Positions 3,248 to 48,019 of a DNA stretch of 64,000 nt are shown piece after piece (position 1 is the stretch's first letter; every line of letters begins with the position of its first letter). The notes beneath the pieces were generated by a model. It worked only from the letters and a program-made list of their open reading frames with translations, had not been told where the DNA came from and ran no database searches. The translations under genes and the position numbers were made by a program. Source of the stretch: an uncultured Nitrospira sp. GTDB lineage: Bacteria; Nitrospirota; Thermodesulfovibrionia; Thermodesulfovibrionales; UBA6898. Location of the stretch: contig CAVTHB010000003.1 of assembly GCA_963734475.1 (NCBI GenBank), positions 60,390 through 124,389 of the forward strand. Reading direction: 5' to 3'.

Positions 3248-4903
<1,656 letters not shown>

Positions 4904-4972
4904 GCTCACCTCCATGTGCCGTTAGGGTATATTCTCATAATAAAGTACAGACAGGCAAGACTAAATTCCGTA

Positions 4973-5103
4973 AGCGTTCAGCCCTCAGCAATGAGCTATC
5001 AGCAAAAAGCATAATTTGTGCGGTCATAAACGCGCCATGCGGCCTGGATATTCTTTTTTTCGCCTTTCCTTGTTGAAAGCTGACCGCTGATGGCGACAGC
5101 TGT
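4973..5103. repeat. Intergenic palindromic element, family A (heptamer-phased NNNNAGC arms), copy 1
   Basis: The left arm is gcgttcagc cctcagc aatgagc tatcagc aaaaagc. The right arm is gaaagctgaccgctgatggcgacagctg, roughly its reverse complement. Confidence 0.75.
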
Positions 5104-5114
5104 ATTATTGAATC

Positions 5115-6563
5115 CTACCCGCATGCCCTGCCTCTTAGATTGAAGAAGAATTTCAGTGCCTTTTTCACCTTAGCGGAGAAGATCTTTCCTGCAAAGAAGT
5201 TCCCTGTGACCCGCTTGTTTATCTCTGCCAGAGTAGGGTAGGGATGCACCGCAGAGGCGAGGCTGGAGAGTTTCACCCCTCCGTTCATTACTGCCACCCA
5301 TTCGCTTATCAGCTCCCCTCCGTGAGGGCCGAATATCTGGAGGCCGATCGGCTTTTCTTTTTCATCGAGGAGAAGTTTCACCTTACCATTCTCTTCTCCC
5401 TCCGCCAGGCTCCTGTCGTTGCCCCTGAATTCTTCCGTCCATACGCTGTATTGAATGCCCGCCTCTCTGGCGCGCTTCTCGTTCATGCCGATGCTCGCGA
5501 GTTCAGGGTCAGTGAACGTGCACCATGGAAGGTTGGTGTAATCTGTCTTTCTGGGCAGGTGGAGTATGGCGTTGCTCAGAACGATACCCCCTTCATATCC
5601 CGCTGCGTGGGTAAACTGATATTCACCTGTCATATCGCCTGCTCCGTAGATATGCTTATGGTTAGTCCTCAGCCGTTCATCAAGCTCAAGTCCCTTTCTA
5701 TCAAATCCCACTGATATGCCTTCGAGCCCGAGCCCCGGAATATTAGGTCTTCTACCGAGGGCCACGAGTATCTTTTCAGCCCTGAGGCTTATGGACTCGT
5801 CAGCCTTGTTCTTTATGACTACCTCTCTTTCATTGTTGTGATCTCTGACTTCCTGAATAGCAGACTCCAGATGGAACGTCACGCCTTCAGAAGCCATAAC
5901 GCCCATAACCAGGTCTGCCATGTCCTTGTCTTCTTTGCTCAGTATCTGGTCTGACCGTTGTATTACCGACACTCTTGTCCCGAGACGGCAGAAGGCCTGG
6001 GCCATCTCGATGGCGACCGGACCCGCGCCGATTACGATCATGGAGGAGGGGAGGCGTTCGAGTGAGAAGATCTCCCTGTTGGTAATGAACTGAGTCTTCT
6101 CAATACCAGCTATCGCCGGGACATCAGGCGAAGACCCGGTAGCGATTACCCAGTTCTCTGCGGAAAAGGATTTGCCATCAAGTTTAACTGTGTGCTCATC
6201 GGTAAAGACCGGTCCGCCGAATTCCACTTTAACGCCCAGGCCGCAGAACCTTTCTTCTGAGTCATGTTTCTGGATCTTGCCTATTACAGACTGTATCCTC
6301 TTTGCAACGGTCTGGAAATCTACTGCCGCTGCTTCAACCCGAGGCAGTCCGAACAACTCCGCGTTCTTCATCAGGTGATACACACGGGCAGTCCTGATAA
6401 GCGTCTTGCTGGGAACGCAGCCATAGTGCAGACAGTCGCCTCCTAGTGCCTTTTCTTTCTCGATCAGGAGCGTTTTTGCTCCGAATTGCGCTGCACCGGA
6501 GGCAACGGTCAGACCCGCCGAGCCGCCGCCGATGACGCCTATGTCAAAATCATATTTTGCCAT
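5115..6563 (-). CDS. Pyridine nucleotide-disulfide oxidoreductase (dihydrolipoyl dehydrogenase / mercuric-reductase-like)
   Basis: It has the GxGxxG FAD motif (GVIGGGSAG), the redox-active CLHYGCVPSK disulfide, and a C-terminal dimerisation region with HPYPTLAE. Confidence 0.85.
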   Translation of the reverse strand: MAKYDFDIGVIGGGSAGLTVASGAAQFGAKTLLIEKEKALGGDCLHYGCVPSKTLIRTARVYHLMKNAELFGLPRVEAAAVDFQTVAKRIQSVIGKIQKHDSEERFCGLGVKVEFGGPVFTDEHTVKLDGKSFSAENWVIATGSSPDVPAIAGIEKTQFITNREIFSLERLPSSMIVIGAGPVAIEMAQAFCRLGTRVSVIQRSDQILSKEDKDMADLVMGVMASEGVTFHLESAIQEVRDHNNEREVVIKNKADESISLRAEKILVALGRRPNIPGLGLEGISVGFDRKGLELDERLRTNHKHIYGAGDMTGEYQFTHAAGYEGGIVLSNAILHLPRKTDYTNLPWCTFTDPELASIGMNEKRAREAGIQYSVWTEEFRGNDRSLAEGEENGKVKLLLDEKEKPIGLQIFGPHGGELISEWVAVMNGGVKLSSLASAVHPYPTLAEINKRVTGNFFAGKIFSAKVKKALKFFFNLRGRACG

Positions 6564-6580
6564 GTCCCTTTCCTGTATTC

Positions 6581-7273
6581 TTATCTTATCTCTTTCCTTG
6601 ATTTATACCATGCAATCGTCTTTTTTGCGACCAGGGGCAAGAGTCCGAGCAGCGCGAATGATATTATGAGGCCAGGTGACAGGATGCCTGCGAGGGAATC
6701 TATCTTTGCAAGTTCTTTTCCCGCATTGACGTAAACAATAGTAGCGGGCAGCATCCCTGCCTGCGATACCCAGTAGAATGTTCTGAGGGGCATCCTTGCG
6801 AGGCCCAGGACAAGGTTAATCACGAAGAAGGGGAAGACTGGAATAAGGCGCAACGTGAAAAGATAGAACACGCCTTCGCGTTCTATACCGCTGTTGACGG
6901 TCTTCAGCTTTTCTCCAAACTTTTCCTGTACCCAATCCCGCAGGACGAAGCGCGACACAAAGCAGGCCAGGGTCGCTCCGATACTGCTGGCAAAGGAAAC
7001 AATTATTGTGCCTCTCAGCAGCCCAAACAGTGCGCCACCTGCAAGGGTCATTACAGCGGCTCCGGGCAGCGATAAGGATGTCACCAGGATATAGATGAGC
7101 ATGTACGCCCCGATGACGATGACCGTATGATCGGCATACAATGCCATAAAATTATGCTGCGATTGTTTTATATAGGAGAGTGACAGATAATCTCCGAGGT
7201 TAAATATTTTATAAGCAGCGACAGCCAGGGCAATAAGCGCGAGAATTATTATCTTGTTTAGGTATTTCTTCAT
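6581..7273 (-). CDS. TVP38/TMEM64 (DedA/SNARE-associated) family membrane protein
   Basis: Multi-TM 230-aa ORF with the family-typical FLFTLRLIPVFPFFVINL segment. It lies immediately downstream of the disulfide oxidoreductase, which is a commonly seen pairing. Confidence 0.75.
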   Translation of the reverse strand: MKKYLNKIIILALIALAVAAYKIFNLGDYLSLSYIKQSQHNFMALYADHTVIVIGAYMLIYILVTSLSLPGAAVMTLAGGALFGLLRGTIIVSFASSIGATLACFVSRFVLRDWVQEKFGEKLKTVNSGIEREGVFYLFTLRLIPVFPFFVINLVLGLARMPLRTFYWVSQAGMLPATIVYVNAGKELAKIDSLAGILSPGLIISFALLGLLPLVAKKTIAWYKSRKEIR

Positions 7274-7344
7274 CTGTGTTATGGAAAATAATCAAAGAGA
7301 ATACTTAGAAAAGCTTTGAATATAAACAAATCGAAAGCGCATAC

Positions 7345-7425
7345 CTCTCTCTGTGCTCTCATAGTATTAGCCTCTGCATTCTATAAATCTACAATTCTTT
7401 TTCTCTGTGTTCTCTGTGGTGCATT
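7345..7425. repeat. Family B element, partial (single orientation)
   Basis: The segments are ctctctctgtgctctc ... ttctctgtgttctctgtggtgca. Confidence 0.55.
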
Positions 7426-7434
7426 TCTGAGACT

Positions 7435-8406
7435 TCATGTCATCTCTTCCAGGTCCTTTAGCGTTTGCAGCGCCAGCATTGCCCCGCCCCAGAGTCCGCT
7501 GTTTTCGTCCTTTATGAGGAAGACGGGGATCTTTGAGAGTAAGTCAGCAAGGGTATCGGAACTCCGGAACTCAGTTTCAAAGGCCGGATGGGTAAGCAGT
7601 TCAGGTGTTTTGGCCGCCACGCCCCCAGCAACATACAAACCGCCCATAGCCAGGGTTTCAAGAACATAGTTGCGGCAGACCCTGGCGCAAAACATCGAGG
7701 CCCATTCGAGCGTCTCCGGATAGATGGAAAATTCCTTCACTACATCAGAGGGTTCCAGATTTCTGCCGGTAAAAAAATAATGAAGATAGCTGAGACCTCT
7801 GCCTGAGACAACCGTATTGGCCGTGATGTATTTGTCCTTTCTCTCCTCCATGAGGAAATTCTGATATTCAAATTCTCTGGCGGAAATAAATGGAAAATTT
7901 GTGTGGCCTCCTTCTGAGGGCAGCGCTATGTATCCTCGTTTGACAGAAGGCATGGACACAGCTTTTCCGAGCCCTGTACCGGCTCCGATCACCGCTCTGG
8001 CTGCGGCTGGGTCCGGAAATCCGGGAAGGATTTGTTCTGCCGCTTCGCCGATCGGCGAACGGCAGGCAAAGGCCTGCGCGATAAAGTCATTGATCAGCAT
8101 ACATTTTTTGAATCCGAAATCCTTTTCTGCTGATGAGATATCGATGCCCCACGCTATCAATGGCGGTTTGCTCCGGACTTTCTTCTCGACAGGGCCTGCA
8201 ACAGCGATTATAACCATGTCTGAGGCCCCTGGTTCCAAAGAAAAGCTGCTCTTTCTCAGGTTGGCGATCAGATCAGGGAAAGATGCTGCTTCGACCGTGT
8301 TTAACCATATTGCTTCGACAAGCGACAACCTGTCTTCGCCGTCAATCCTGAAGTGGCCAAACCTGCTGTGCGTTCCGCCTATGTCTGCTGCGAGGATGTT
8401 TTTCAT
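7435..8406 (-). CDS. glk: Glucokinase
   Basis: N-terminal ATP-binding motif LAADIGGTHSRFG, and length and pattern typical of the Glk family. Confidence 0.8.
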   Translation of the reverse strand: MKNILAADIGGTHSRFGHFRIDGEDRLSLVEAIWLNTVEAASFPDLIANLRKSSFSLEPGASDMVIIAVAGPVEKKVRSKPPLIAWGIDISSAEKDFGFKKCMLINDFIAQAFACRSPIGEAAEQILPGFPDPAAARAVIGAGTGLGKAVSMPSVKRGYIALPSEGGHTNFPFISAREFEYQNFLMEERKDKYITANTVVSGRGLSYLHYFFTGRNLEPSDVVKEFSIYPETLEWASMFCARVCRNYVLETLAMGGLYVAGGVAAKTPELLTHPAFETEFRSSDTLADLLSKIPVFLIKDENSGLWGGAMLALQTLKDLEEMT

Positions 8407-8543
8407 TTATACCTTAGATACTATCATGCCCGGCGTTATTGGTTAACCGTAAATACGCATTTGACCCAGAAGAAGCTGTCACTGCGGCATTATAAAGATT
8501 TTTTTACATATCCGCGCAAAAGTGCGTCTTTCAGGTTTATGCA

Positions 8544-9314
8544 TCATTTATACACCTCGATGTAATCGACATAAGAGACCGAGCTTTCCCCTGTGTTGTC
8601 GGAGTCGTTCATGATGGCGATGTCTGCAATAGCAGGCGGCTGAACTCCGAAGGCCTTTTTATAGTCTTCGAGGATGTCCGCCTCCTCTGTAATCCATTGT
8701 CCGGCCTTTTCCCCGCCAGCTTCCATGCTTATCATCTTTGCCTCACTGGCATAGGGATTGGTAATGATCTTTTCCGGATACGTACTGTTGGCCCAGACAT
8801 AATTCAGGCTGCTCTGTGGAGGATATTCACCGTAGATTATTTTGGCCAGCCCATACCTGATCCTCTGGAAGAAGGAGGCTGTTTCCGGATCATATTTGAA
8901 TATTACATAGATGCGGATAGGGTAGTCATCTCCTGCCTTTTTTTCCGGGTCCGCTTTTTTATATGCGTTGCTTATCTTCCATCGCCATTTGATCTTAGGG
9001 TAGTCGTACACATTGAATTCCTTCCTGTATATTATCCCTGATGCAGATGCATTGCTTTCAGCCTTCAGATAAGATCCATTCTGTTCTTTGACGACCGTGT
9101 ATATGCTGTGTCTTTTGATCTTCGGAAAGTATAAGGGCTTCCAGTCATCGAGGCTGTTGAAATCCTCTCTGATGAATACACGCTTCTCCTGGCCAAAAGA
9201 GGGAAGAGCAGTGAAATTCATAAAGAGCAGGGTGAAAAGAACAATAGTACTCAGTGAGTCCAACAATACCGGACCAGCAGGCCAACTGCCTGCTATTGTA
9301 TCGAGCCTATTCAA
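8544..9314 (-). CDS. DUF3047 domain protein (secreted or membrane-anchored)
   Basis: The pattern EDFNSLDDWKPLYFPKIKRHSIY...DDYPIRIYVIF matches DUF3047 as I remember it. A hydrophobic N-terminal segment is present. The listed start is a TTG at 9314 and the true start is probably further downstream. The 5' end overlaps the possible Sec extension of the upstream gene. Confidence 0.65.
   Translation of the reverse strand: MNRLDTIAGSWPAGPVLLDSLSTIVLFTLLFMNFTALPSFGQEKRVFIREDFNSLDDWKPLYFPKIKRHSIYTVVKEQNGSYLKAESNASASGIIYRKEFNVYDYPKIKWRWKISNAYKKADPEKKAGDDYPIRIYVIFKYDPETASFFQRIRYGLAKIIYGEYPPQSSLNYVWANSTYPEKIITNPYASEAKMISMEAGGEKAGQWITEEADILEDYKKAFGVQPPAIADIAIMNDSDNTGESSVSYVDYIEVYK
9276..9294 (-). promoter_or_regulatory. 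SECIS-like hairpin downstream of the in-frame UGA
   Basis: Minus-strand sequence: UGA-AUAGGCUCGAUACAAU-AGCAGGC-AGUUG-GCCUGCU. This is a perfect 7-bp stem with a 5-nt loop containing GU. The apical loop starts 23 nt after the UGA. Confidence 0.5.
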
Positions 9315-10240
9315 GTCGAGCCCTGTCCTGCTGTGCAGCCATAGCAGTGGTCATCAACAGCCAGCTGCCGTCCGGACAGCAGGCGATGGTCGAAATCCCT
9401 GAGAGTGCGGGGATACGTGTCGGGTAATCTGAGCCCGATCATCTGGTTGAAATCACAGTCATAAAGAGTCCCGTCCCATCCGACATTGACCAGGCGTCTG
9501 CACATTATCCCCGTTAATGTTTCAGGGTTGAACGCGCAGCTCAGCTTTTCCATATACCTGTTGAAATTACCGGAGCGAATCAGAAATTCCCGGAAACGGC
9601 CGATAGGCATATTGGCAAAGGTATAGAGGGAGTTGAAGTCGACGTCATATTTTCCCTTCAGTTCTTTGCGGTATTCGTCTTCGAGACCGGCCTGAGAAGG
9701 CGGCAGAAATGCCCCCTGCGGGTTATATACCAGGTTCAGCTTCTTTGTTTCTGTGCCGTATCCAAGGCTGTTAAGTCTTTGCATTGCTGCTATGCTTTTC
9801 ATAAATGTGCCACTCCCCCTGACTTTATCGACACCTGTATCATTATAATAGGGAAGTGACGCGATGATTTCTACGTTGTTTCGGCTGTAGAAGTCAAACA
9901 GGTCTTCCATGCCGTTTTCGAGGAATATTGTCAGGTTGCTTCGCGCTATCACATGACAGCCTATATGTTTCGCCTGTTCAACCAGGTAGCTGAACCCGGG
10001 ATTGAGTTCAGGCGCTCCGCCTGTGATGTCCAGCAGCCTTATATTGCTGTTATCTAATACCCTGAGCACCTCTTCGATCATCTGTTGGTCCATCTTCTCT
10101 TTCCTGGCGGGTCCTGCGCTGACATGGCAGTGTTTGCAGGCCATATTGCAGGCATATCCCAGATTCACCTGCAGGATATCTATCCCGTTTGCATGCAGCG
10201 GGCCTGACTGGACTGTCAGGACTTTGTCCCTGAAATTCAT
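9311..10240 (-). CDS. Radical SAM/Cys-rich domain protein (ArsS-like). It ends at TGA and probably reads through as selenocysteine to the TAG at 9293.
   Basis: It has the CNMACKHC radical SAM motif and a C-terminal Cys-rich domain ending HCYGCTAGQGST-TGA. After the TGA the frame continues in-frame as IGSIQ-TAG. A 7-bp hairpin follows the TGA. Confidence 0.85.
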   Translation of the reverse strand: MNFRDKVLTVQSGPLHANGIDILQVNLGYACNMACKHCHVSAGPARKEKMDQQMIEEVLRVLDNSNIRLLDITGGAPELNPGFSYLVEQAKHIGCHVIARSNLTIFLENGMEDLFDFYSRNNVEIIASLPYYNDTGVDKVRGSGTFMKSIAAMQRLNSLGYGTETKKLNLVYNPQGAFLPPSQAGLEDEYRKELKGKYDVDFNSLYTFANMPIGRFREFLIRSGNFNRYMEKLSCAFNPETLTGIMCRRLVNVGWDGTLYDCDFNQMIGLRLPDTYPRTLRDFDHRLLSGRQLAVDDHCYGCTAGQGST

Positions 10241-10268
10241 GAAATAGCAGTTCCTCTTTTCATATCAG

Positions 10269-10601
10269 TTACATCGATATCTTGTCTGCTGAATTATGGG
10301 CCTGTATGCCGTGTATCAGCGAGGCCCCGCCCCTTACAGCAGATGCCACATGCAGGGCCTCGGTTATATGTTCGAGGTTCATTCCCTCTTCAAGACAGGA
10401 CTTTGTATACGCATCTATACAGTAGGGGCACTGGACAGCATGCGCAACGCCAAGTCCTATAAGGACCTTCTCCCTTTTTGTAAGGGTCCCCGGCTGAAGA
10501 GCTGAGGTGTACCAGGCCATAAATTTTTTGAAGAGCTCGGGGCTGTGCTTGCCGATCTCTCCGAAACGCTCCAGGTCTTCATCATTATAATAATCGCCCA
10601 T
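10269..10601 (-). CDS. AhpD/carboxymuconolactone-decarboxylase-family peroxidase-like protein (rSAM/ArsS-associated type)
   Basis: 110 aa with the CxxC motif VQCPYCIDAYT. It lies directly upstream of the radical SAM/Cys-rich gene. Confidence 0.8.
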   Translation of the reverse strand: MGDYYNDEDLERFGEIGKHSPELFKKFMAWYTSALQPGTLTKREKVLIGLGVAHAVQCPYCIDAYTKSCLEEGMNLEHITEALHVASAVRGGASLIHGIQAHNSADKISM

Positions 10602-10718
10602 TAAATCCTCCTCTCAAGTTACCAACGCCAAAATCTGATTAAATCTTTCTCTGCAATGAAGGTATATAAAAAGTATACAAGATGTTTTTTTCTGTTACAA
10701 TTATTATGTAAATTGCTG

Positions 10719-10858
10719 GCGTTCAGCCGTCAGCAATGGCTGTCAGCGAAAAACGAAATATTTGAAATTTATGCTGAGTTCGGCAAGGCGTCCTTATAGG
10801 TTTTTGTTTGCCTTGTCTTGATGAAAGCTGATCGCTGAGGGCTGATAGCTGAACCGTT
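10719..10858. repeat. Family A palindromic element, copy 2
   Basis: The arms are gcgttcagccgtcagcaatggctgtcagcg ... gaaagctgatcgctgagggctgatagctgaaccgtt. Confidence 0.75.
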
Positions 10859-10902
10859 ACTGCAAAACATAGTATGCAACGGGCAATGAAAAGGGGGTGT
10901 AT

Positions 10903-11814
10903 ATGCAGATAGGAATGGTAGGTCTCGGCCGCATGGGTATGAACATGGCGTTACGCTTGCTCCGGGGCAGGCATGCTGTTGTTGCCTATAATCGTACTCC
11001 TGAGAAGGTCAAGGAGGTAGTAAAAAAGGGTGCGAAAGGGGCTTACACCTTGGAGGAACTTGTCACTGCGCTGAGACCCCCCCGCCATATCTGGATCATG
11101 CTTCCGGCCGGTCTGCCTGTTGATGAAACTATTACAAAGCTTAAGGGTCTGCTTCAAAGGGGTGATACTGTTATAGATGGAGGCAACAGCTTCTACAAAG
11201 ACGATGTCCGCAGGGAGCAGCAGCTAAGGCCTAGTGATATTCACTATCTGGACGCTGGTGTCAGCGGTGGTATATGGGGCCTCAAAATCGGTTACTGTCT
11301 CATGGTCGGCGGGGAGAAGAGGGTTTACAAGCGTCTTGAACCGGTCTTCAAAACCCTGGCGCCGAAGGACGGATATCTGTATTGCGGTCCTGCGGGGGCC
11401 GGTCATTTCGTGAAGATGGTTCATAACGGCATTGAGTACGGCATGATGTCGGCCTATGGAGAAGGGTTCGGGATCCTGAATGCGTCTCCGTATGCAGGAG
11501 GGCTTGATTTTGCGAAGGTGGCCCATCTGTGGAACCAGGGCAGTGTCGTGCGTTCGTGGCTGCTGGAACTGGCTGAGGACGCCTTTGAAAAGGACAAGGA
11601 CCTGTCGTTGATCCAGGGATATGTAGAGGATTCCGGTGAGGGTCGCTGGACATTGCAGCAGGCGATCGATACCGGCGTCCCGGCACCGGTTATATCCGCC
11701 GCGCTTTTTCAGCGGTTCCGGTCGCGGACAACTGATCCTCTTTCAGACAGGGTTCTGGCTGCTCTCAGGAACGAGTTCGGCGGGCATGCGGTCAAGAGCA
11801 AAAAGAAGTCCTAG
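10903..11814 (+). CDS. gnd: 6-phosphogluconate dehydrogenase, short decarboxylating (Gnd-like/YqeC) form
   Basis: N-terminal Rossmann motif MQIGMVGLGRMGMNMA, and a C-terminal 6PGD domain with GHFVKMVHNGIEYG. An AAGGGGG RBS lies 5 nt before the ATG at 10903. Confidence 0.88.
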   Translation: MQIGMVGLGRMGMNMALRLLRGRHAVVAYNRTPEKVKEVVKKGAKGAYTLEELVTALRPPRHIWIMLPAGLPVDETITKLKGLLQRGDTVIDGGNSFYKDDVRREQQLRPSDIHYLDAGVSGGIWGLKIGYCLMVGGEKRVYKRLEPVFKTLAPKDGYLYCGPAGAGHFVKMVHNGIEYGMMSAYGEGFGILNASPYAGGLDFAKVAHLWNQGSVVRSWLLELAEDAFEKDKDLSLIQGYVEDSGEGRWTLQQAIDTGVPAPVISAALFQRFRSRTTDPLSDRVLAALRNEFGGHAVKSKKKS

Positions 11815-11968: not shown

Positions 11969-14900
11969 ATGCCGGAAATAATTGATATATGCAGTCTTGA
12001 TTATCTGATAGGCACACTGGCCACTGCTTACAAGGGGCTTATCACTTCCCTGATCGCAAAAGATTTCTGCATGACCGAGAGTGAAGCTAAAGTTACGCTT
12101 AAGGGGACTGTCCTGTCTATGCCTGAGGGGGCTTACCAGGCGTTTCTCATGCAGGGGGGCATAGAACTGGCAAGGGCTGAAATGAGAGGCGGTTTTTTTG
12201 AGTTCCTTGTTGACAGCGAAAAGGTCAGATACGGCAGGAACCTCCAGATCGATATTGTCCAGAGAGGAAGGCATATAGGAACCTTTTTGCTCAGCCAGGA
12301 ACAGTCAGGGAGTATGTACCGGTCGGCCCTGGAACTATCTGAAGATCTTAAGGGTATAAATTTTCATCAGCTTACGGTCTTTCTGCGTGAGAAGCCGGGA
12401 CTCTTTAAAAGGTCCGAGGAGATAATCTCGAAGGTGCTCTCTACAAAAAAGGACTGGAGAAAGTTTTCTGAGGAGATAAACAGTTTTGCGAAGGACCTGT
12501 TCTGGAGTGAGAGAGAGGCGTTTTATTTCTGGTATGGCATACTTGTGGATTATTCGCACAAGGCGGCCGAGGCCGTTGACAGCGCATTCAGGGAAAAGCC
12601 GGTAGAAAACTTTCTTTTTCTGATCGAACTCCTGCTGGAGAACGAGTCTGACGAAGAAAAGATACTCAGGGCTGCCGGGGTCTGGCTTCGGAAGATGAAG
12701 GAGCCGGTAGACCTTTCCGGCACTCTGCCACAGGTCAGAAAGACCCTGACCGCTCTTCGTTCACGCTTCCCTGACGCTCCCATCGAAGCAGCGCTCCGGC
12801 AGCTTCTGCAATCACTGAAAAGGCTTGCAATGAAAGCCCCTGCCATACCTGCGGCCATTATCGACAGCCTCAGGGGGATTGTCTCAGACAGTGATCTTTC
12901 AAGGCTTATCGTCTACAGTGAAGAAAAAAGGGAAGTCTTACTGATAGAGGTAAAAGAACTTGAAGCCCTGCTCAGTGCAGGGAGATATACTGAATTGCTC
13001 GTAAGGATCAACGAAACGGACCTCTCTTTTTCTTATGATGCGGAAATGACCGATACCTTCTTTGCTGTTATAGAGAATAATATAAGCGGGGAGACCGCGC
13101 CGGAATATTTCGATGCGCTTGTTGTCTTTTTATCACTCTTTGCAGCATTGTCGCCGGAGGCATATAAAAGGGGTGTGCTGAACCTCGCGGGACTAATACG
13201 CTATCTCATAAGGCACAGGCTTGTAACGACATGCGCCGGCCTGCTGGGCAATATCGAGAGAGCCGGCCCCGGCATAAAAGAGGATCTCCTGCTGAACACT
13301 GAAATCGCGGCCTCGATCTGTGACGCGGGCAGTGAGACTCTTACAAAACAATACAGGGCGCTCCTTAGACAGATCGTGGTCCCTTTTCCGAGGATTACCG
13401 GCTTCTCGACCGACTCATGGGCCGAGATTGTACCCGGCCCTCACCTGGAAAGGCTGACCGCGTTCCTCTCTATCATCCGGCTGGACAGTGTCTGCTTCAG
13501 GGATGTACTGGTGCATCTTATCTGCAACCTTTCCGTAACAGGGGTCTTTATCCCTGATGACAAGCTTTTTCAGCGTGAAGTATCCTCCTATCTGAATTCA
13601 GCAGTTCTGGAGGAAGACTTCCTGCTGCATTACATACTTCTCAGGAAATTGCCTGTCTTCTTCAATGAGGTCGGGGCCTCCGGGAAGATAAGGGATTATA
13701 CTACTGAAATAGATGCCTGGGGCAACGACACTGTCCTCTATTTTCTGAGGAAGCAGGTCCATGTAAATGCGAGCAGTCAGAACATTGTCCTGGTCGAAAA
13801 GATAATACAGACCTGGCTGCGCCGGGACCCGGAAATCCTCAAAGACGTTGTGCCGGGGGAGATACTGAACAGGCTCGATGTGTCACTTCTCAATCGATAT
13901 TCAGCAGCGCTCCGGCCATTTTTTGAAGGCCTGAAAGTTGTTAAAGGCGGGGAGCTCTGCGTGGAAAAACTCCTTTCTCTTTCAGAAGGGGAACTGGAAC
14001 GGGGTCTGGCAGCCATTGAGACGGAAGAGGAGATCAGGGAAAAAATATTGCTCCTCAGCAGAATATACCTTGAGCTCCAAAAGAAATATTCACTCGAGAA
14101 CAGGAATATCCCGCATGAAGTTGCGGAGCAAAACGAACTCTGCGCAATGCTGGGCAGGAATATCGCGGGGATGAAAGAGCTTTGCAAAACCGTTATTTCT
14201 CCTGAAAAAACGGCGCCCCGGGAATCCCTTTATTTTAAAAGACATATTGCCTTCGGTATCCCCTCGGTTATCGGCACATATCACGAGCCGAAATTCGATG
14301 CCCTGGCAGGCATGCTCAGGATCGGCGAGGAGGTAAGGGTGAGCCTTGAGAAGATAATTTCTTCTGTCGGAAGCGGGTCCGCCGCATATTCTGAGGGCGA
14401 GCCAGGCGAATGGATAATATGTCTTGAAGGCATGCGGGACCTTTTCAATGTTTATGGACTCGGTAATTTTCAGATAGATGAAATTATCACGGTCCTCAGG
14501 ACGAACAGGTTTTTCATTTCCCAGGTAATTGATCTGTTGAGGATCTGGCAGGGGGAACTGGCGGCTATGGCAAATTCTCTCTCAAACACTTTTTATGAGG
14601 GTTTTTCCGGACTGCTTACTGTATTACCCGGGAATGATCTTCCGGAAATCGAACAACTATACGGAAATAGCGCTTTGCCCGGGACAACAGACGTTTATAT
14701 CAGGAACATCTTGAGTTCGGCCGCAGGATTCCTTGAACTTGACAGGCTTCTTGAAAAACTCCTGTCCTTATTAAAGCAGCGTGTTGTATCGGCTCGTGAT
14801 GATATCTTTATGCCGGTCGATACGCTGAAAAAGGAAGAGGAAGTTTTTGTCCTTGACGACCTTTCTGAAGAAGACGCGATGCGTTTGTCTCCTTTGCTCG

Positions 14901-16348
14901 GCGGAAAGGCGAAGAACCTCGCGTACCTCAAACAACAGGGGCTGGAAGTTCCGTCCGGCGTGGTCTTTTCTGCCGAAAAGACGGAATCCTTTCTGCAGTA
15001 CACAGGGGGAGAAGACTTCAAGTCAACTTTAAAAGACGCGGTAAGACATATTGAAGACCGGACAGACAAGGGTTATGGAAGTCCTGTTGATCCTCTCTTT
15101 CTTTCTGTCCGCAGCGGCTCTTATATTTCAATGCCCGGTATCATGTCGTCGATACTCTTTTGCGGTATGAACAGGGAGACACTCAGGGGATTTATAAACT
15201 CCCGCGGGAATGAATGGCTTGCGTACGATTCTTACCGAAGGTTCCTGGAGCACTTCGGTGCTGTTGTGTATGACCTTGGGGGTAATTATTTTGATGCTAT
15301 TCAGCTCTCTTATCTGAACAGCCTGGGGAAGGGGGCGGTGAAGGAATTGGGTACAGAACAGATGAAAACGCTCGCCGGTCTTTATCTGAACGGCCTGGCA
15401 GAACGGGGAATGCCTGTCCCTGAGGATGTATATGAGCAATTGAGACTTTCTGTCGGCGCTGTCTACCGGTCGTGGTATTCTGACAGGGCGCTTAGGTTCA
15501 GGAACGCGATGAATGTTTCAGAGCATTGGGGGACTTCAGTTTTGATCATGCAGATGATCTATGGCAATGAAAAAAACTCGGGGGCCTCGGTATTTTTTAC
15601 AAGAAGGCCGCCTTCGCTGGAAAAGGGTATTTATGGTGACACAGGAGAAAATTCAACTGGAGCTGATCTTGTAAATGGGAAGCAGGTCAACCTTCCTCTG
15701 GCTCGTCAGCAGGCTAAACATGGACAAAAAAGCCTTGAAGAGCTCGACCCGGGGTTGTTCAGGATGCATCAGGAGCTTGCAATACAAATTGAGAAGGTGA
15801 TGAGGGGAATGCCGCAGGAGGTCGAAGTGACCTATGCGACCGGACCGGAGGGAGGGAGGCATATCTATGTCCTTCAGACAAAGAGAATGGAGGTATACAG
15901 GGGGTTTACAAAGAGGTTTCAGGACGTCTGCCAAATGCATGCGAAGATCATAGGACGCGGGGTGGGAGTCCATGGAGGAGCGCTGAGCGGAGTGGCCACT
16001 TTTTCTTCCAGCCCTGAACGTATCAGAAAATTGCGCATGAGTTCAGGAATGCCGGTGATAGTCCTGAGGGCCATGGCTAGTACGGATGACGTTTCCCTGA
16101 TGCCTGAAGTGAACGGTATAATTACTGTTGCCGGAGGAGTTGCATCGCACGCTTCTATCCTGGCTCAGAAATTTGACCTGGCAGCAGTCGTGGGCTGTAC
16201 TGAGATGCATATGTATTCGGATGAAGAAGGCCAACCGTTCGCAAGGATAGGAAAATACCCGGTGAAGGAAGGCACGCTGATCAGTATGGACGGATCAACG
16301 GGTATGGTGTATTCCGGTTCCTGCGGGAGCACTTATCCGGAGCGGTAA
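11969..16348 (+). CDS. Giant PEP-synthase/PPDK-like dikinase-family protein. An uncharacterised N-terminal region of about 950 aa is followed by an ATP-grasp (PPDK_N) domain and a phosphohistidine swivel domain. There is no PEP/pyruvate TIM-barrel domain.
   Basis: The C-terminal third shows LGGKAKNLAYLKQQGLEVPSGVVF (PPDK_N nucleotide-binding domain) and GGVASHASILAQKFDLAAVVG (PEP-utilizer mobile domain with the catalytic His). The first roughly 950 aa have no motif I recognise. The exact start is uncertain. Confidence 0.8.
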   Translation: MPEIIDICSLDYLIGTLATAYKGLITSLIAKDFCMTESEAKVTLKGTVLSMPEGAYQAFLMQGGIELARAEMRGGFFEFLVDSEKVRYGRNLQIDIVQRGRHIGTFLLSQEQSGSMYRSALELSEDLKGINFHQLTVFLREKPGLFKRSEEIISKVLSTKKDWRKFSEEINSFAKDLFWSEREAFYFWYGILVDYSHKAAEAVDSAFREKPVENFLFLIELLLENESDEEKILRAAGVWLRKMKEPVDLSGTLPQVRKTLTALRSRFPDAPIEAALRQLLQSLKRLAMKAPAIPAAIIDSLRGIVSDSDLSRLIVYSEEKREVLLIEVKELEALLSAGRYTELLVRINETDLSFSYDAEMTDTFFAVIENNISGETAPEYFDALVVFLSLFAALSPEAYKRGVLNLAGLIRYLIRHRLVTTCAGLLGNIERAGPGIKEDLLLNTEIAASICDAGSETLTKQYRALLRQIVVPFPRITGFSTDSWAEIVPGPHLERLTAFLSIIRLDSVCFRDVLVHLICNLSVTGVFIPDDKLFQREVSSYLNSAVLEEDFLLHYILLRKLPVFFNEVGASGKIRDYTTEIDAWGNDTVLYFLRKQVHVNASSQNIVLVEKIIQTWLRRDPEILKDVVPGEILNRLDVSLLNRYSAALRPFFEGLKVVKGGELCVEKLLSLSEGELERGLAAIETEEEIREKILLLSRIYLELQKKYSLENRNIPHEVAEQNELCAMLGRNIAGMKELCKTVISPEKTAPRESLYFKRHIAFGIPSVIGTYHEPKFDALAGMLRIGEEVRVSLEKIISSVGSGSAAYSEGEPGEWIICLEGMRDLFNVYGLGNFQIDEIITVLRTNRFFISQVIDLLRIWQGELAAMANSLSNTFYEGFSGLLTVLPGNDLPEIEQLYGNSALPGTTDVYIRNILSSAAGFLELDRLLEKLLSLLKQRVVSARDDIFMPVDTLKKEEEVFVLDDLSEEDAMRLSPLLGGKAKNLAYLKQQGLEVPSGVVFSAEKTESFLQYTGGEDFKSTLKDAVRHIEDRTDKGYGSPVDPLFLSVRSGSYISMPGIMSSILFCGMNRETLRGFINSRGNEWLAYDSYRRFLEHFGAVVYDLGGNYFDAIQLSYLNSLGKGAVKELGTEQMKTLAGLYLNGLAERGMPVPEDVYEQLRLSVGAVYRSWYSDRALRFRNAMNVSEHWGTSVLIMQMIYGNEKNSGASVFFTRRPPSLEKGIYGDTGENSTGADLVNGKQVNLPLARQQAKHGQKSLEELDPGLFRMHQELAIQIEKVMRGMPQEVEVTYATGPEGGRHIYVLQTKRMEVYRGFTKRFQDVCQMHAKIIGRGVGVHGGALSGVATFSSSPERIRKLRMSSGMPVIVLRAMASTDDVSLMPEVNGIITVAGGVASHASILAQKFDLAAVVGCTEMHMYSDEEGQPFARIGKYPVKEGTLISMDGSTGMVYSGSCGSTYPER

Positions 16349-26608: not shown

Positions 26609-29272
26609 CTAGCCCAGCATTGCATTCAGCGTATCTCTAAGCTCCTCAAGGTTGTAGGGCTTTGTCAGGCGCGCCTTGAAGCCGTATTTATTATAATCCG
26701 ATACAACGGCATCGTCCGAGTAGCCGCTCGATACAATGGCCCTGATGCCGGGGTCGATTGCAAGCAGTCTTTCTATCGTCTCTTTTCCTCCCAGGCCCCC
26801 GCGGATAGTCAAATCCAGGATCACGATATCGAAGGGACTGTCCGACTCACTTGAGGTCTGGTATTTCTCGATAGCTGCTTCTCCATGTTCTGTTAAGTCC
26901 ACATCGTGACCGAGGGCTGTTATGAGTTCTCCTGCGATATTTCGTATCAGTTCCTCGTCATCCATTACAAGGATTTTACCTTTGCGGGCAGGGGCAGTGG
27001 CCACAGAAATTACTGAGGCTGCGGAAGCCTCTCTTTCAGCTTCAAGCGCAGGCAGATAGACAAAAAAAGTGGTGCCTTCGCCCGGTTCAGAAGCCACATC
27101 GATAATGCCGCCATGGTTTCTGATTATGGAATAGGAAGTCGCAAGTCCCAGTCCGCTGCCCTTCTTCCTGGTCGTAAAATAGGGGTCGAAGATCTTATCG
27201 CAGGTACTTGCCCGGCAATACCGATACCGCGTGTCCTGAACAGAAATCTCAACATACTTTCCGTTCTCCAGGAGGTTGGAATGGGTCTTCTTCGGCTCCT
27301 GCAGATTTTTTGCCGTGATCACTATCGTACCACCTGAGGGCATCGCCTGATCAGCATTAAGCACGATGTTCTGGATCACCTGTCCGATCTGTCCCTTCGT
27401 CAGCCTCTACAGCCCAGAGGTCTTCGTCCGGTAAAGATGCGGTATTCAGCCGTGGAACCGCTCAGGGCGAACTTCACGGAATTCTCGATCAGGGTCTGGA
27501 GTCGTATCTTCTTCTTAACCGGTTTGCCGCCTTTTGAGAAGGTCAGAAGCTGTGTGGTAAGGTTTACAGACATATGCAGGGCCTGCTCTGCCTGCTCAAG
27601 CATGGCAAGGGAGCGCTCCTTTCTGTCCAGGGTCAGCTTGGCCAGGGAGATATACCCGAAGACTACCCTGCAGCAGAGTTGTTGAAATCATGCGCAATGC
27701 CGCCTGCCAGGGTCCCGATCGCCTCAAGCTTCTGTGTCTTCAGCCGCTCCTCTTCAAGAAGGTGCTTTTCAGTAATATTATTTACTGTCTCAATAACTGA
27801 GGTAACGGCTCCGGATCTGTCCTTTATCGGAAAGGCCTTTGTCTCAACATACAGGACAGCGTCATGAGCGTCTGCATGTTTGTGGACAGTTGTGCAGGGC
27901 TGCTCCTGTATCGAAGACCTTACGCACAGCACAGTCCTCACCTGTCTCAAAGCACGGCCGCAGGACCTTGTGGGAAATCTCGTAGCAGTGTCTGCCGATG
28001 ACATCATCGCATATCTTGCCTAACTGGCTGCAGTATGCCTTATTGGCAGTCAGTATGCGGAAATCCCTGTCGATCACGATAAACCCCTCATCAACAGTGT
28101 CCAGGACGTTTCTTATAAATTGTTCGCTTTCGCGAAGGTCCTGTTCCACACGTTCCCTTTCAAGTATCTCGTACTTCAGCTCCTCGTTGGTCAGGAACAG
28201 TTGTTCGGTCCGCTCTTTGACCCGCCTTTCAAGATTGTCATGGGCTTCCCGGACCTTTCCGACCATTGAGTTGAATGCTGTAGCAAGCGCCGCTACCTCG
28301 TCGGAACCCTTCACTTCAGCCCTAAGTTCGAGGGAGCCGCTCTCCGTTATACGCTTTGCCGCATCGCTCAATACCATCAGCCTGCCGGTAAGCATCAGCG
28401 AAATCGTCTTTGAGACCCACATGGTAACAGCTATGAACATCAGCCCCGCAACAAAATAGATCCCTACAAGCCACCCTGCCTGTATTTTCCGGTAATCGTC
28501 TATCTCGAACTGAAACGCCATCTTGTCCAGGGGCGGTTGAAGCTTCAGTCGTTTCTTCATCTGAAAGAAACTTGCCTCGTCCCTTTTGTTCTTTTGCAGT
28601 AAAATATTTTGGCTGCTCAGCAGCGACACGCTCCTGTCATTGCTTACATCGAAGGAAGGCAGGGTCTTGTTGAACAGCTCGTCCAGCCTTATCTCCCCAA
28701 CCAGTATGCCCTCAGGTTTGTTTGTCATGACCCAGATGACCGGAAACGCCATCAGGAGGCTTTTTCCATTGCCGTATTTATCGAGTTCTGCGAATCTCTT
28801 TCCTTCCCCGATCGTTCTTTTCAACAGCTCCGGAGAATTGAATGTGCGAGGATTCCGGACATTTGAAGCGATGGGCGTACCCATGAAATCACAGAGGGTC
28901 AGTTTGACTGCGATGTCGTGTTCGAGCTTGTAACTTTTCATGAAAGGGACTATATATGTGTCCCGGCCGGTGGTGTCGACGAGTGCGTTGGTAATGATGA
29001 GGTTTGCAGAAATGTTGGACATGGACTCAGAGATGGAGTTCATCGTTTGCTCGAGCCTCAGCGAAGCCTGGACAGCATCGGATTCGAGCGTCTGCTGGAT
29101 ATTCTGCCTGACGAGGCGCCTCATGAACCCGAAGGACAGCGACTCCGACTATCAGGAGAATAGACAACGTGAGGGCGATCATCGCAAAATTGACACGATG
29201 GTAAATGCTGTTGTTCGTCCGCTCATAATAAGAGAGGAGCTTTGTCCCTGATAACGGAAGGCAGTCGTTCAA
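26609..29272 (-). pseudogene. Hybrid sensor histidine kinase (TM - sensor - HAMP - PAS - HisKA - HATPase - REC) broken by at least 6 single-base frameshifts
   Basis: Fragments lie in different frames: 29027-29272 (TM), 27862-29124 (sensor/HAMP/PAS), 27663-28007 (PAS plus H-box GIAHDFNN), 27400-27603 (DHp) and 26609-27379 (HATPase+REC). My hand translation shows the conserved sequence continuing across each frame switch. Confidence 0.85.
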
Positions 29273-42234: not shown

Positions 42235-44226
42235 CTATCCCTTAATACTTGGCGCAACAGGCTCCTTCTGTTCTTCCAGCATAGCCTTAAGGTTAGGGAA
42301 TTTGTCTTTCATGTGCGGGATATGCATCGCCTGCATGAACTCCTTTTCGAATGCCGGCTCTGTCGCGATCTCTACAAATTCGACCCACCTGGCGCGTTCA
42401 TCAGCTTCTTTTCTCTTGTTCCTGTTGAGCAGCGCCATCCTCGATCCGTCGCCTGCTGCATTGCCGACGACGACGACCTTTTCGATAGGCACATCAGGGA
42501 ACATGCCTAGCGTCAGTGACGCCTCCCGGTCGATATGGCTGCCGAAGGCACCGGCAAGTTCAACGCGGTCCAGTTTTGTGACGCCCATTTTCTGCATCAT
42601 CAGCTTTGCGCCGGCATAAAGTGCGCCTTTTGCAAGCTGGAGGGCCCTGACATCACCCTGTGTTACAGTGATATCCTGGCCTATGGAAGTCTCCTCTGCC
42701 CATGCAAGCACATACTCCGGCTTGCCCTCAGAACTTTTCCTGACTCTGCTGGTGTCGGCATCAGGAACAAACTTGCCCGTTTTGTCGATTATGCCTGCCT
42801 TGAACATCTCGGCTATTACATCTATGATCGCCGAGCCGCATATGCCCTTAGCATTGATCTTGCCTTCGATATGGGTGTGCCAGTCAGCCTTGCCGATCAC
42901 TTTGTACTGTGCTTCCTTTGTTGCCGGATCGATCTTCACCTTCTCGATTGCGCCGGGGGCCGCTCTCATCCCGAACTTGATCTGGGCGCCTTCGAACGCG
43001 GGTCCTGTGGCACATGAGGTCGAACAGACCCTGTCCTTATTACCCAGAAGAAGTTCGCCGTTCGTGCCGATGTCTATAATGAGCACCATATCGTCCTGGA
43101 AATACTGCTCTTGAGCGATGAGCACACCGACATTGTCAGCACCGACGAAACCGGCCTCGATCGGCAGCACATGTATGAATGAGCCTGGGTTGATCCTCAG
43201 TCCGAGATCGCGGGCCTTGATATCAAGAGAACGCTGCACCGCGGGTATAAAGGGTGAACGGCCGATATAGACGGGATTGAGACCAAGGAAGATATGGTGC
43301 ATCGCCGTGTTGAAGACGATCGTAAGGTCGTCTATAGCATGACCGGGATGAGGGCCGTTTTTCCTTATTTCCGAGACAACTTTTTCGATAATCTCATTAA
43401 GGCCTGCAATGATCGCATCCTGCATGGTCTTCAGTCCTTCAGGATTTGTCATGGCGTAGGTTATTCGGGACATTACGTCCTCACCGTATGGCACCTGAGG
43501 GTTCATCATCGACTCCGTATTGATTACTTTTCCGGTGCTGAGGTCGCAGAGATAACCAACACACGTTGTTGTTCCGATATCAACGGCAAGACCGTAGCAC
43601 GCGTCGACATGACCAGGCTCAACTTTAATTATCTCCTTGCCCTGCCAGACAGTTACAGTGATGGTCCAATCTCCGTCCCGCAGGGCGTCCTGAAGCTTGA
43701 GCAGGACCTGAAAATCGAAGGTCAGATCCTTGATGCCATAAATGTCCGACATCGCGGTTATGACCCGCTCATAGTCGCCTGTACTCATATCGTGCAGAGT
43801 GGGGGGGGTGAATGTAAGCGTGTATTTTTTCACCGCAGGGTCAAGCGCGATCACAAGCTCTTTAGCGGCCTTTCGCACTACCTGTTTGCCGGCCCTGGAC
43901 CTCTCAGGCACAAACACCTTCAGGTCCCCGTGGATCTCGCAGGAACAGGCGAGTCTCACCCCGGGGCCGTCTTCCGGTTTCAGATGCTTCAACTCATCCG
44001 GCGTAGGTTGGGCCGGCGTAATATGCGCCATGCCGGATTCGAGATTGTCCTTCTCAGAATAGCCCTCCTCGATCCTGACCTTGCATTTGCCGCAGACCTT
44101 CTTGTCCCCGCAAAGTGCTTCGAGGTCAACGCCGAGAAGCTGCGCTGCCTTGAGAATTGTTGTGCCTTCCTCTATTTCTCCGCGCCTGCCTGCAGGCTGG
44201 AAAATCACCTTGAATTTACGACTCAT
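42235..44226 (-). CDS. RACo-type reductive activator of corrinoid proteins ([2Fe-2S] ferredoxin + ASKHA ATPase)
   Basis: The N-terminus has a plant-type ferredoxin motif CGDKKVCGKCKV...RLACSC. The ASKHA phosphate motifs are VDIGTTT and IDIGTNGE. Confidence 0.88.
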   Translation of the reverse strand: MSRKFKVIFQPAGRRGEIEEGTTILKAAQLLGVDLEALCGDKKVCGKCKVRIEEGYSEKDNLESGMAHITPAQPTPDELKHLKPEDGPGVRLACSCEIHGDLKVFVPERSRAGKQVVRKAAKELVIALDPAVKKYTLTFTPPTLHDMSTGDYERVITAMSDIYGIKDLTFDFQVLLKLQDALRDGDWTITVTVWQGKEIIKVEPGHVDACYGLAVDIGTTTCVGYLCDLSTGKVINTESMMNPQVPYGEDVMSRITYAMTNPEGLKTMQDAIIAGLNEIIEKVVSEIRKNGPHPGHAIDDLTIVFNTAMHHIFLGLNPVYIGRSPFIPAVQRSLDIKARDLGLRINPGSFIHVLPIEAGFVGADNVGVLIAQEQYFQDDMVLIIDIGTNGELLLGNKDRVCSTSCATGPAFEGAQIKFGMRAAPGAIEKVKIDPATKEAQYKVIGKADWHTHIEGKINAKGICGSAIIDVIAEMFKAGIIDKTGKFVPDADTSRVRKSSEGKPEYVLAWAEETSIGQDITVTQGDVRALQLAKGALYAGAKLMMQKMGVTKLDRVELAGAFGSHIDREASLTLGMFPDVPIEKVVVVGNAAGDGSRMALLNRNKRKEADERARWVEFVEIATEPAFEKEFMQAMHIPHMKDKFPNLKAMLEEQKEPVAPSIKG

Positions 44227-44295
44227 TTATATATCCTCCCTGAAATCTTTGTAGTTACTGACCTGGCCTTTATAGAGTTAAAAACATTCAAAGCC

Positions 44296-44360
44296 GTCAT
44301 GCCCGGGCTTGATCCCGGCATCCAGTGATTCCGGATTCCCCCGCTCAGGTGGGGAATGAC
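44296..44360. repeat. REP-like double hairpin of the same family, intergenic copy
   Basis: The arms are gtcatgcccgggcttgatcccggcatcc ... gattcccccgctcaggtggggaatgac. Confidence 0.75.
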
Positions 44361-44478
44361 AAGAATGGGACTTTTATAATGACTTTTTACATATATATTT
44401 ACTCACCGTTGTCCCGCACAAAGTGCGCAACGCAAATAATATCTGAACTACCTACGGCATATCATCCAAAACTTCGGA

Positions 44479-45132
44479 CTACAGGCTTATTTTATTGCCT
44501 CCTCCGTTTTTTCTTGAATAGGGGCAGACTGTCACGCAGAAGCCGCAGTTAGGCTTGCCTTCAAGACTCTGCCGTTCCTGTTTGAGCGCTGAGCATTTGT
44601 CATAGAAAACCATCTCCTTGCGAGGCTCGTTTACAGACCAGTGGTCACCCCTGATCGCACCTGAAGGACAATGCGTTACACAGAGATCGCAGTCCCCGCA
44701 CTCAGACTCCCGCATCGGCTCATCAGGATCCAGCGGTGCATTGGTCAGCACGGTTGCCCAGGAGAGTTTTGAGCCGTATTGCCGGTTGATCACAAGCCCG
44801 TTCTTCCCGACCCACCCGAGACCCGAACAGGTGGCTGCTGTCTTGTGGCAGAAGAGTTTGTAGAGCTTTGTTATGAGCTTGTCTTTCCTCCTGTCTGAAT
44901 CAGGGGGTATGACGAGATTCAGGTAGCCTCTTGATCTCAGCCAATCCTCAGCCAGTCCCTGAAGTTTTAAGAGCATTTCAACGGTTTCACGGTTCAGACT
45001 CCTGTTGACTGCTATTGCCACACCGCGGTTCAGGTGAAGTATCTCGCTCGACAGAGCTTTGGTAATGTCGCCTATGCCGACGAGGGTAGCACCCTCCTTT
45101 TTCAGATACTGCTTGAGCATGTCTGAATTCAC
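44479..45132 (-). CDS. QueG/RdhA-related 2x[4Fe-4S] protein (short form)
   Basis: The Fe-S motifs are CGDCDLCVTHCP and CGFCVTVCP. The preceding region resembles the epoxyqueuosine-reductase core (GLGWVGKNGLVI). Confidence 0.6.
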   Translation of the reverse strand: MNSDMLKQYLKKEGATLVGIGDITKALSSEILHLNRGVAIAVNRSLNRETVEMLLKLQGLAEDWLRSRGYLNLVIPPDSDRRKDKLITKLYKLFCHKTAATCSGLGWVGKNGLVINRQYGSKLSWATVLTNAPLDPDEPMRESECGDCDLCVTHCPSGAIRGDHWSVNEPRKEMVFYDKCSALKQERQSLEGKPNCGFCVTVCPYSRKNGGGNKISL

Positions 45133-45135
45133 GGT

Positions 45136-45822
45136 TTATTGCTTCGCCGCCTTCTCGTCTCTGAGCTTCTTGAGGAACGCGACCATCTTGATTGCCTCCT
45201 TGAGAGCGTTGCTGGCATCCTCTGCATAACCGTCAGCGCCCCACTTGTCGGCAAGATCCTTGGAAGTCGGAGCTCCACCGATCATGACCATGCAATTGGG
45301 GTTCTTTTCCTTGATCTTTTCGATCACCTTCGGCATACCGACCATGGAAGTCGTCATCATTGCAGAGAGGCAGACAAGGTCTGAGTCAGTCTTGAGCTGT
45401 TCTTCAACGAACTTGTCCAGAGGGACATCCCTGCCAAGGTCATAGACATTGAAGCCTGCAACGTCAAACATCATCTTGACGAGGTTTTTGCCGATATCAT
45501 GCACATCCCCTTCAACAGTCCCGATGACAACAGAACCCTTTACGCCAAGGTCCATCTGCTTGCAATGCGGCTTAAGGATCTCAAGACCTGCGTAGAGGGC
45601 GTCGGCGCACATGAGGATCTCGGGTACGAAATATTCCTGCGCCTCAAAAAGCCGTCCGACTTCCTCCATGCCTGACACCAGACCGTCAAAGATGGCCTCG
45701 TTGGCGTCCAGACCAGCCTCAAGCGCCTCGTTAGCGCCTTCCTTGCACGCGTCCTCATCATACTGTATGACGCCGTTTCTCAATTTCTCGAAGATTTCTT
45801 TCTTTTTAGTTTCGTCTGCCAT
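45136..45822 (-). CDS. Corrinoid (cobalamin-binding) methyl-carrier protein, MtaC/MtbC-like
   Basis: It has a B12-binding cap helix bundle and a Rossmann domain with the DxHxxG motif (GDVHDIGKN). Confidence 0.9.
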   Translation of the reverse strand: MADETKKKEIFEKLRNGVIQYDEDACKEGANEALEAGLDANEAIFDGLVSGMEEVGRLFEAQEYFVPEILMCADALYAGLEILKPHCKQMDLGVKGSVVIGTVEGDVHDIGKNLVKMMFDVAGFNVYDLGRDVPLDKFVEEQLKTDSDLVCLSAMMTTSMVGMPKVIEKIKEKNPNCMVMIGGAPTSKDLADKWGADGYAEDASNALKEAIKMVAFLKKLRDEKAAKQ

Positions 45823-46850: not shown

Positions 46851-46875
46851 AAATTACTGTCTCCTTTCAAATCTC

Positions 46876-47829: not shown

Positions 47830-47927
47830 TACATCTCCTTTTTACGGGGATTATGATAATATAAAATATGCGTTTAACTCAGGGCAGCTTACCTTCGACT
47901 GAAGGTCGCTGCCTTTCTTTTTTTCAC

Positions 47928-48014
47928 CAGGTTCAGGCTAAGGCTAAGGTTGAGGGAAAAACTCAGGAGCATACTTGTCTTTCTTTACCTCTACCTTAAC
48001 CTCAGCCCTTGATC
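47928..48014. repeat. Palindromic element with hexamer-phased GGCTAA/AGGTNA arms (family D)
   Basis: The arms are ggttcaggctaaggctaaggttgaggg ... ctttacctctaccttaacctcagccc. Confidence 0.6.
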
Positions 48015-48019
48015 TTATT

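Follow-up and report, generated by a model that had tools for sequence, protein, structure and literature searches.

Genes and features at the locus

The minus strand of the window, a 64,000-nucleotide stretch of contig CAVTHB010000003.1 of an uncultured Nitrospira sp. (assembly GCA_963734475.1), encodes an ArsS-type radical S-adenosylmethionine (SAM) enzyme whose reading frame contains, close to its 3' end, a TGA codon that very probably encodes selenocysteine (Sec). Indeed, the sequence and the list of open reading frames (ORFs) place at 10240..9311 an ORF of 309 amino acids, the last residues of which are ...DDHCYGCTAGQGST, with the in-frame TGA at 9313..9311; the residues found just before this TGA (ORF span 10240..9314, minus strand) are ...HCYGCTAGQGST. 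Past the TGA, the same frame continues on the minus strand with ATA GGC TCG ATA CAA (I-G-S-I-Q, 9310..9296), a putative C-terminal tail of the selenoprotein, and then meets a TAG codon (9295..9293), which would be the true stop. The predicted full product thus comprises 309 residues, Sec and five further residues, with Sec310 as the sixth-from-last residue, and the full-length gene (315 codons, Sec310 among them, and the TAG stop) would occupy 9293..10240 (minus strand). The last two bases of the stop codon (AG, 9294..9293) lie at the base of the stem of a hairpin that resembles a selenocysteine insertion sequence (SECIS) and extends over 9276..9294 (minus strand). An earlier note on this DNA had described the end of the ORF, the TGA, the I-G-S-I-Q extension, the TAG and a 7-bp stem with an AGUUG loop 16 nt after the UGA; all of these were found where that note had placed them, and the product length of 315 amino acids that it had given is arithmetically right.

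The family assignment of the gene is based on profile searches with the protein to which the tail had been added, U being written as C. In NCBIfam, its score on TIGR04167 is 431 bits (curated cutoff 300), with residues 15-314 aligned to profile positions 2-303 of 303; the short name of this family is rSAM_SeCys and its product name "arsenosugar biosynthesis radical SAM (seleno)protein ArsS". The Pfam domains Radical_SAM (PF04055, E = 7e-13) and DUF3641 (PF12345, E = 1e-51, profile positions 1-134 of 134) are also detected. The CxxxCxxC motif of radical SAM enzymes is present as C31-N-M-A-C35-K-H-C38 and is invariant in the alignments of homologues, as are four more cysteines of the C-terminal domain (C247, C262, C299 and C302). 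The earlier note had described a family that ends with a motif of the type CxxC...GSS-C-G and has some members carrying Sec. Both statements hold: C299-x2-C302 is invariant and the Cys forms end in G-S-S-C-G-G-x-x-x, and the family is both named as a (seleno)protein in TIGR04167 and listed with a GxxU motif in reviews (PMC9312934, PMC13188914).

Directly upstream, at 10601..10269 (minus strand), lies the usual partner of the family, a gene coding for an AhpD/CMD-type "arsenosugar biosynthesis-associated peroxidase-like protein" (TIGR04169, 156 bits, cutoff 120; Pfam CMD), which is here in its Cys form (CPYC).

Conservation of the UGA position among homologues

In the earlier note, the UGA was proposed to align with the last conserved Cys of the family. 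DNA was fetched for 160 homologous loci (80 from species-representative genomes and 80 from metagenomes), and the codon directly after the G-x-G-S-[ST] motif was recorded: TGC was counted 78 times, TGT 64 times, TGA 19 times and anything else 0 times. A Cys codon (TGC or TGT) therefore occupies the UGA column in 142 of the 142 loci that lack UGA, which bears out the proposed alignment; far from ending before the TGA with no Cys beyond it, the homologues show the opposite. The two forms have tails of equal length, the UGA forms ending in G-S-T-UGA-[IVTLMA]-G-[AS]-[IVA]-x-stop and the Cys forms in the G-S-S-C-G-G-x-x-x motif followed by a stop. Among the representatives of clusters at 50% identity that contain the motif, 82 have Cys at this point, 18 end exactly there and one has Phe.

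The closest protein relatives were the best 120 hits (P0001-P0120) in a collection of 5.8 billion sequences, and are 60-100% identical to the query. Stops at ...G-S-T or ...G-S-S were found in 119 of these 120 proteins, the exception (P0015) diverging earlier. Since the closest proteins share this end, the whole clade is taken to carry the same codon, and the shared endpoint suggests a systematic truncation by gene callers. Records that are named "(seleno)protein ArsS" have also been deposited truncated at the UGA (HYQ48058.1, HSB32532.1), and for the exact protein of the window the only record is an unnamed sequence of 309 residues.

When 160 sequences were placed in a neighbour-joining tree, all 20 UGA forms descended from one node, under which just two Cys forms fell as well, and the source labels of the nearest relatives are mostly Nitrospirota, Thermodesulfovibrionales or Candidatus Sulfobium. 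As the UGA forms belong to one clade, the trait is inherited in the lineage. The two Cys forms, from metagenome loci L090 and L105, nest within the otherwise all-UGA clade, which may mean that they reverted from Sec to Cys or that the simple tree misplaces them.

Codon pattern of the tail downstream of the UGA

The five codons that follow the UGA (9296..9310 in the window, minus strand) are conserved in the 20 UGA-type loci and match the Cys-form tail in length. At codon positions 1, 2 and 3, their mean column entropy in the 20 sequences is 0.92, 0.45 and 1.51, respectively. The second codon of the tail invariably specifies Gly, encoded by GGC, GGG, GGA or GGT, and at the third codon Ala is encoded by all four GCN codons. 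To judge from the aligned sequences, this pattern is what purifying selection leaves in a sequence that is translated. In 16 of the 20 UGA-type loci, another stop codon (TAG, TAA or TGA) stands at a fixed position; in the other four (L002, L081, L087 and L089), the reading frame stays open across the hairpin.

The SECIS-like hairpin

The hairpin consists of a 5' arm AGCAGGC (9294..9288), an apical loop AGUUG (9287..9283) and a 3' arm GCCUGCU (9282..9276), with seven Watson-Crick pairs in a perfect stem, and the gap from the A of the UGA to the first base of the stem is 16 nt. According to RNAfold, this hairpin (9294..9276) is the minimum free energy (MFE) structure of the window sequence.

The earlier note had made the conservation of the hairpin in relatives sharing the TGA a point to be examined. 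A hairpin with at least four G-C pairs is present in 20 of the 20 UGA forms (window included), starting 15-19 nt past the UGA in 19 of them and scoring at 12 in L087, and shows compensatory changes. When the same offset window was folded in the Cys forms as a negative control, a comparable hairpin was obtained in just 8 of 141, at scattered offsets, and the mean MFE was -12.4 kcal/mol for UGA forms vs -4.2 kcal/mol for Cys forms (Mann-Whitney p = 1e-11). On the alignment of the 20 UGA-type 3' regions, RNAalifold gives the same six core pairs. The 7-pair structure has 90.6% of its cells paired in the 20 UGA forms, vs 23-46% after a shift of the 3' partners by 1-3 columns. Changes on both sides occur in four of the seven pairs, for example from A-U to G-C in L003 and L081, from G-C to A-U in L081, and from G-C to A-U or U-A at the outer core pair; the covariation score of the hairpin was reached by 0 of 500 column shuffles. 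The apical loops of the UGA forms (GGUC, AGUUG, GGU, GUG, GUA, GGA and similar) each start with or contain G.

Directly after the SECIS-like hairpin, at 9255..9275 (minus strand), comes a weaker one (GGUCCGG/UUGGACU, three of its pairs being G-U), within which the likely TTG start codon of the downstream DUF3047 gene is enclosed. As an alternative, a lower stem CGAUAC/GUAUUG could extend the SECIS-like hairpin.

Decoding of the UGA codon

With high confidence, the UGA at 9313..9311 is predicted to encode Sec in a 315-residue ArsS-type radical SAM enzyme. The alternative that survives best, itself improbable, is that the TGA is a genuine stop, in which case the 309-residue enzyme of the clade would have lost the last conserved Cys and the hairpin would be a transcript-stabilising or terminator element between the ArsS gene and the DUF3047 gene. 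Gene callers and database records do end the protein at the TGA, which is a common stop in the window, and no Sec machinery was seen there. However, the five codons behind the TGA still look like coding sequence, in that four different codons specify an invariant Gly and another stop follows at constant spacing in 16 of 20 loci, and none of the 142 non-UGA loci lacks the Cys. The hairpin, moreover, keeps its distance to the UGA and not to the downstream gene, in a downstream sequence that is otherwise unconserved among relatives. An intrinsic terminator was rejected, the hairpin being followed by GGUCCGGUAUUG, without a T-run, and no terminator being called on the minus strand in 8400..10800.

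A read-through of the UGA without Sec, by which near-cognate Trp or Cys, or Cys via the Sec pathway, would be inserted and the hairpin would act as a generic stimulator of read-through, is thought slightly less probable still. Nothing specific favours it, and both the catalogued status of the family as a selenoprotein family and the alternation of UGA with Cys, combined with a hairpin at SECIS distance that has a G in its apical loop (the standard bacterial Sec signature), argue against it. A conversion of TGC or TGT into TGA by sequencing or assembly error, or a pseudogene, has a negligible probability and is refuted by the comparative data: TGA is only one base away from TGC and TGT, but TGA stands at this site in 19 independent loci from genomes and metagenomes, about 120 independent database proteins are, with one exception, cut short at this residue, and the UGA forms make a clade with a co-conserved hairpin, which excludes sequencing error and pseudogenisation.

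A genome-wide reassignment of UGA was also rejected. Indeed, TGA terminates 20 of the 49 long non-overlapping ORFs of the window; it is an ordinary stop elsewhere in the window, and the recoding is therefore local.

Several observations weigh against the decoding of this UGA as Sec. The fold of the single sequence is only modestly better than chance (66-nt segment, z = -2.1; 8 of 200 dinucleotide shuffles fold at least as well); the single-sequence hairpin is unconvincing alone, and it is the comparison among homologues that counts. The hairpin matches no Rfam family, either at the gathering threshold over the whole window or at E <= 10 over 9150..9450, where the only hits were sub-threshold eukaryotic snoRNA and lncRNA models on the opposite strand, which were dismissed as chance; this null result is uninformative either way, because only families that have been described and curated in Rfam can match. 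ARAGORN found no tRNA gene of any kind, and hence no tRNA-Sec, in the 64-kb window; tblastn searches with SelA, SelB and SelD of E. coli detected no homologue there (best E = 0.4), and no sel gene was identified among the 20 window ORFs (including ten size-matched ones) that were scanned with NCBIfam. The absence of sel genes from 64 kb of a larger genome is weak evidence. Two scans for in-frame TGAs revealed no second selenoprotein gene in the window, the three candidates (described below) all being rejected. Finally, the selenoprotein status of the family is given in the reviews as "predicted" rather than as verified by experiment (PMC9312934, PMC13188914). In favour of Sec, at the level of the taxon, Sec machinery has been reported in Nitrospirae, with selC overlapping selB (PMC9312934, PMC13188914).

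Comparison with known systems

Radical SAM proteins of the TIGR04167 type are tabled as a predicted selenoprotein family (PMC9312934, PMC13188914; example AAR34688.1), the Sec motif of which is GxxU according to a 2026 review (PMC13188914). The protein of the window shares with this rSAM_SeCys family the same hidden Markov model, the architecture combining radical SAM and DUF3641 domains, and the GxxU motif, present as G-S-T-U a few residues from the C-terminus; it differs in originating from a Nitrospirota/Thermodesulfovibrionales-type lineage, judged by its nearest relatives. The gene is a further member of an already catalogued selenoprotein family.

The chemistry of Cys-form ArsS has been established: addition of the 5'-deoxyadenosyl radical to DMAs(III) yields DDMAA (PMC13598754; bioRxiv 10.64898/2026.04.29.721666). 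Compared with Cys-form ArsS, the protein of the window is 46-54% identical over its full length, keeps all the conserved cysteines and has a C-terminal motif of the same length, but would have Sec in place of the last Cys, and its gene carries the SECIS-like hairpin in addition.

Other Sec-containing arsenic enzymes have been tabled, namely selenoproteins of the arsenite methyltransferase ArsM and a selenoprotein with ArsM and AhpD domains, NF041537 (PMC9312934, PMC13188914). As in those enzymes, Sec would replace Cys in an enzyme handling trivalent arsenic, and an AhpD-type partner or domain is involved; the TIGR04169 partner of the window matches the AhpD domain of NF041537 weakly. In contrast, fold and chemistry are different (radical adenosylation vs methyl transfer), and the AhpD-like partner is here the Cys form (CPYC).

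The hairpin was also compared with the SECIS of E. coli fdhF, which was extracted from the real sequence. Both hairpins lie immediately 3' of the UGA and have a small apical loop with G-U. The loop of the fdhF element (GGUC) starts 22 nt from the U of the UGA, whereas that of the window starts at nt 27; in the relatives L005, L007, L008 and L086, a GGUC loop identical to that of fdhF is found at the position of the window loop. Unlike in fdhF, the stem of the window element is short, perfect and GC-rich, without a bulged U. Furthermore, the fdhF element is located wholly within the coding region, whereas the greater part of the window element would remain untranslated, its stem having the true stop codon at the base.

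Proposed mechanism and role of residue 310

By analogy with the standard bacterial mechanism, a SelB-dependent decoding of the UGA is inferred. When the ribosome stands at the UGA, the GC-rich hairpin starting 16 nt downstream would sit at the mRNA entrance and, acting as a bacterial SECIS, would recruit the complex of SelB, GTP and Sec-tRNA(Sec), by which Sec would be delivered to the A site against the competing release factor 2. After the addition of I-G-S-I-Q, translation would end at the UAG, the last two bases of which also serve as the base of the stem. The SECIS would be mostly untranslated because Sec is only six residues from the C-terminus.

A PDB sequence search revealed no ArsS structure, only distant radical SAM enzymes. 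The structure model considered here is an AlphaFold model of a Cys-form homologue (predicted local distance difference test score, pLDDT, 93.3), and it resembles SPASM/twitch radical SAM enzymes with auxiliary Fe-S clusters, namely SkfB, SuiB, EpeE, BlsE, anSME, MoaA and BtrN. The spacing C247-x14-C262 ... C299-x2-C302 resembles the auxiliary-cluster site of BtrN-type twitch domains. If these four cysteines form a twitch-type cluster site, residue 310 is left as a fifth, free ligand, and Sec310, or the corresponding Cys of the Cys forms, would therefore most likely be a free chalcogen ligand that binds the trivalent arsenical or otherwise takes part in the active site. This role is proposed by analogy with the ArsM selenoproteins, arsenic-handling enzymes with Sec in place of a Cys. 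The assignment of Sec to the substrate rather than to a cluster rests on the BtrN-type motif spacing; alternatively, residue 310 may be a cluster ligand.

A more specific proposal, which we regard as speculative and rather unlikely, is that Sec, as a non-cluster chalcogen, directly ligates the trivalent metalloid during radical adenosylation, and that a Se-As (or Se-Se) bond tunes substrate capture in this clade of Nitrospirota-type anaerobes, possibly with a substrate other than DMAs(III). Such a different substrate would fit with the sugar-metabolism neighbours of the gene and with the lack of a nearby arsM among the scanned ORFs.

Neighbouring genes and other features of the window

The pair of ArsS and AhpD-like genes sits, within 3248..11814, among genes of sugar metabolism (pgi, a glk-like gene and a gnd-like gene). 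Also encoded near the pair are a MerA-like flavoprotein disulfide reductase (5115..6563) and a membrane protein ORF (6581..7273), the latter without an NCBIfam match. No arsM was identified among the 20 window ORFs scanned with NCBIfam, which are part of the ORFs of the window. The arsenosugar function attributed to the locus is an annotation transfer, and is to be read as putative.

Downstream of the ArsS gene, a gene of the DUF3047 family (Pfam) is encoded at 8544..9266 (minus strand). Its start, deduced from the sequence, is uncertain and could be TTG at 9266 or 9263, or ATG at 9218. The Pfam match begins only at residue 57 of the 256-amino-acid mechanical ORF, and the start of that ORF at 9314, which overlaps the UGA, is probably not real.

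The three candidate Sec sites rejected in the scans for in-frame TGAs are as follows. The candidate at 27862 (minus strand) is probably a frameshifted PAS sensor: the ORF 27862..29124 (minus strand) codes for a HAMP/PAS sensor of 420 amino acids with a TGA inside an apparent PAS domain (...HNCPQTCRRS*RCPVC*), the next ORF downstream (26609..27379, minus strand) codes for the HATPase/receiver part of a hybrid histidine kinase, and the two together are probably a frameshifted or split sensor kinase, not a Sec site. The candidate at 41879 (minus strand) corresponds to two separate genes in one frame. The third, a CobW-like candidate at 53328, carries GCVCC, i.e. the Cys form; this ORF (53328..54206, plus strand) codes for a CobW/COG0523-like GTPase that scores below threshold on NF041053, "CobW-related selenoprotein" (70 bits, cutoff 180).

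Furthermore, an ORF of 1459 amino acids is encoded at 11969..16348 (plus strand). By eye, its C-terminal half resembles a phosphoenolpyruvate (PEP)-utilising enzyme, with ATP-grasp and mobile domains of the type found in PEP synthase and pyruvate phosphate dikinase (PPDK), and it carries an N-terminal extension of about 850 residues. A corrinoid-dependent methyl-transfer cluster is located at 42235..49656 (minus strand) and comprises an AcsV-like corrinoid activase (42235..44226), two methyltransferases of the MtaA/CmuA family (45822..46850; 48610..49656) and an MtrH/MtgA-like methyltransferase (46876..47829), which suggests that this anaerobe has a methylotrophic or methyl-corrinoid metabolism.

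Implications for the ArsS family

This selenoprotein family has been on record for years, and the gene of the window opens no new biological question; its value lies chiefly in annotation. It would be better annotated as a 315-residue selenoprotein, with a transl_except at 9313..9311, than as a 309-residue protein lacking a conserved active-site residue, and the annotation error is clade-wide, as 119 of the 120 closest entries in the databases would need the same correction. In addition, the comparison of the UGA forms provides a SECIS consensus, supported by covariation, for selenoproteins of the ArsS subfamily, and it points to the C-terminal Cys/Sec (residue 310) as a functionally critical position that merits attention in mechanistic work on ArsS.

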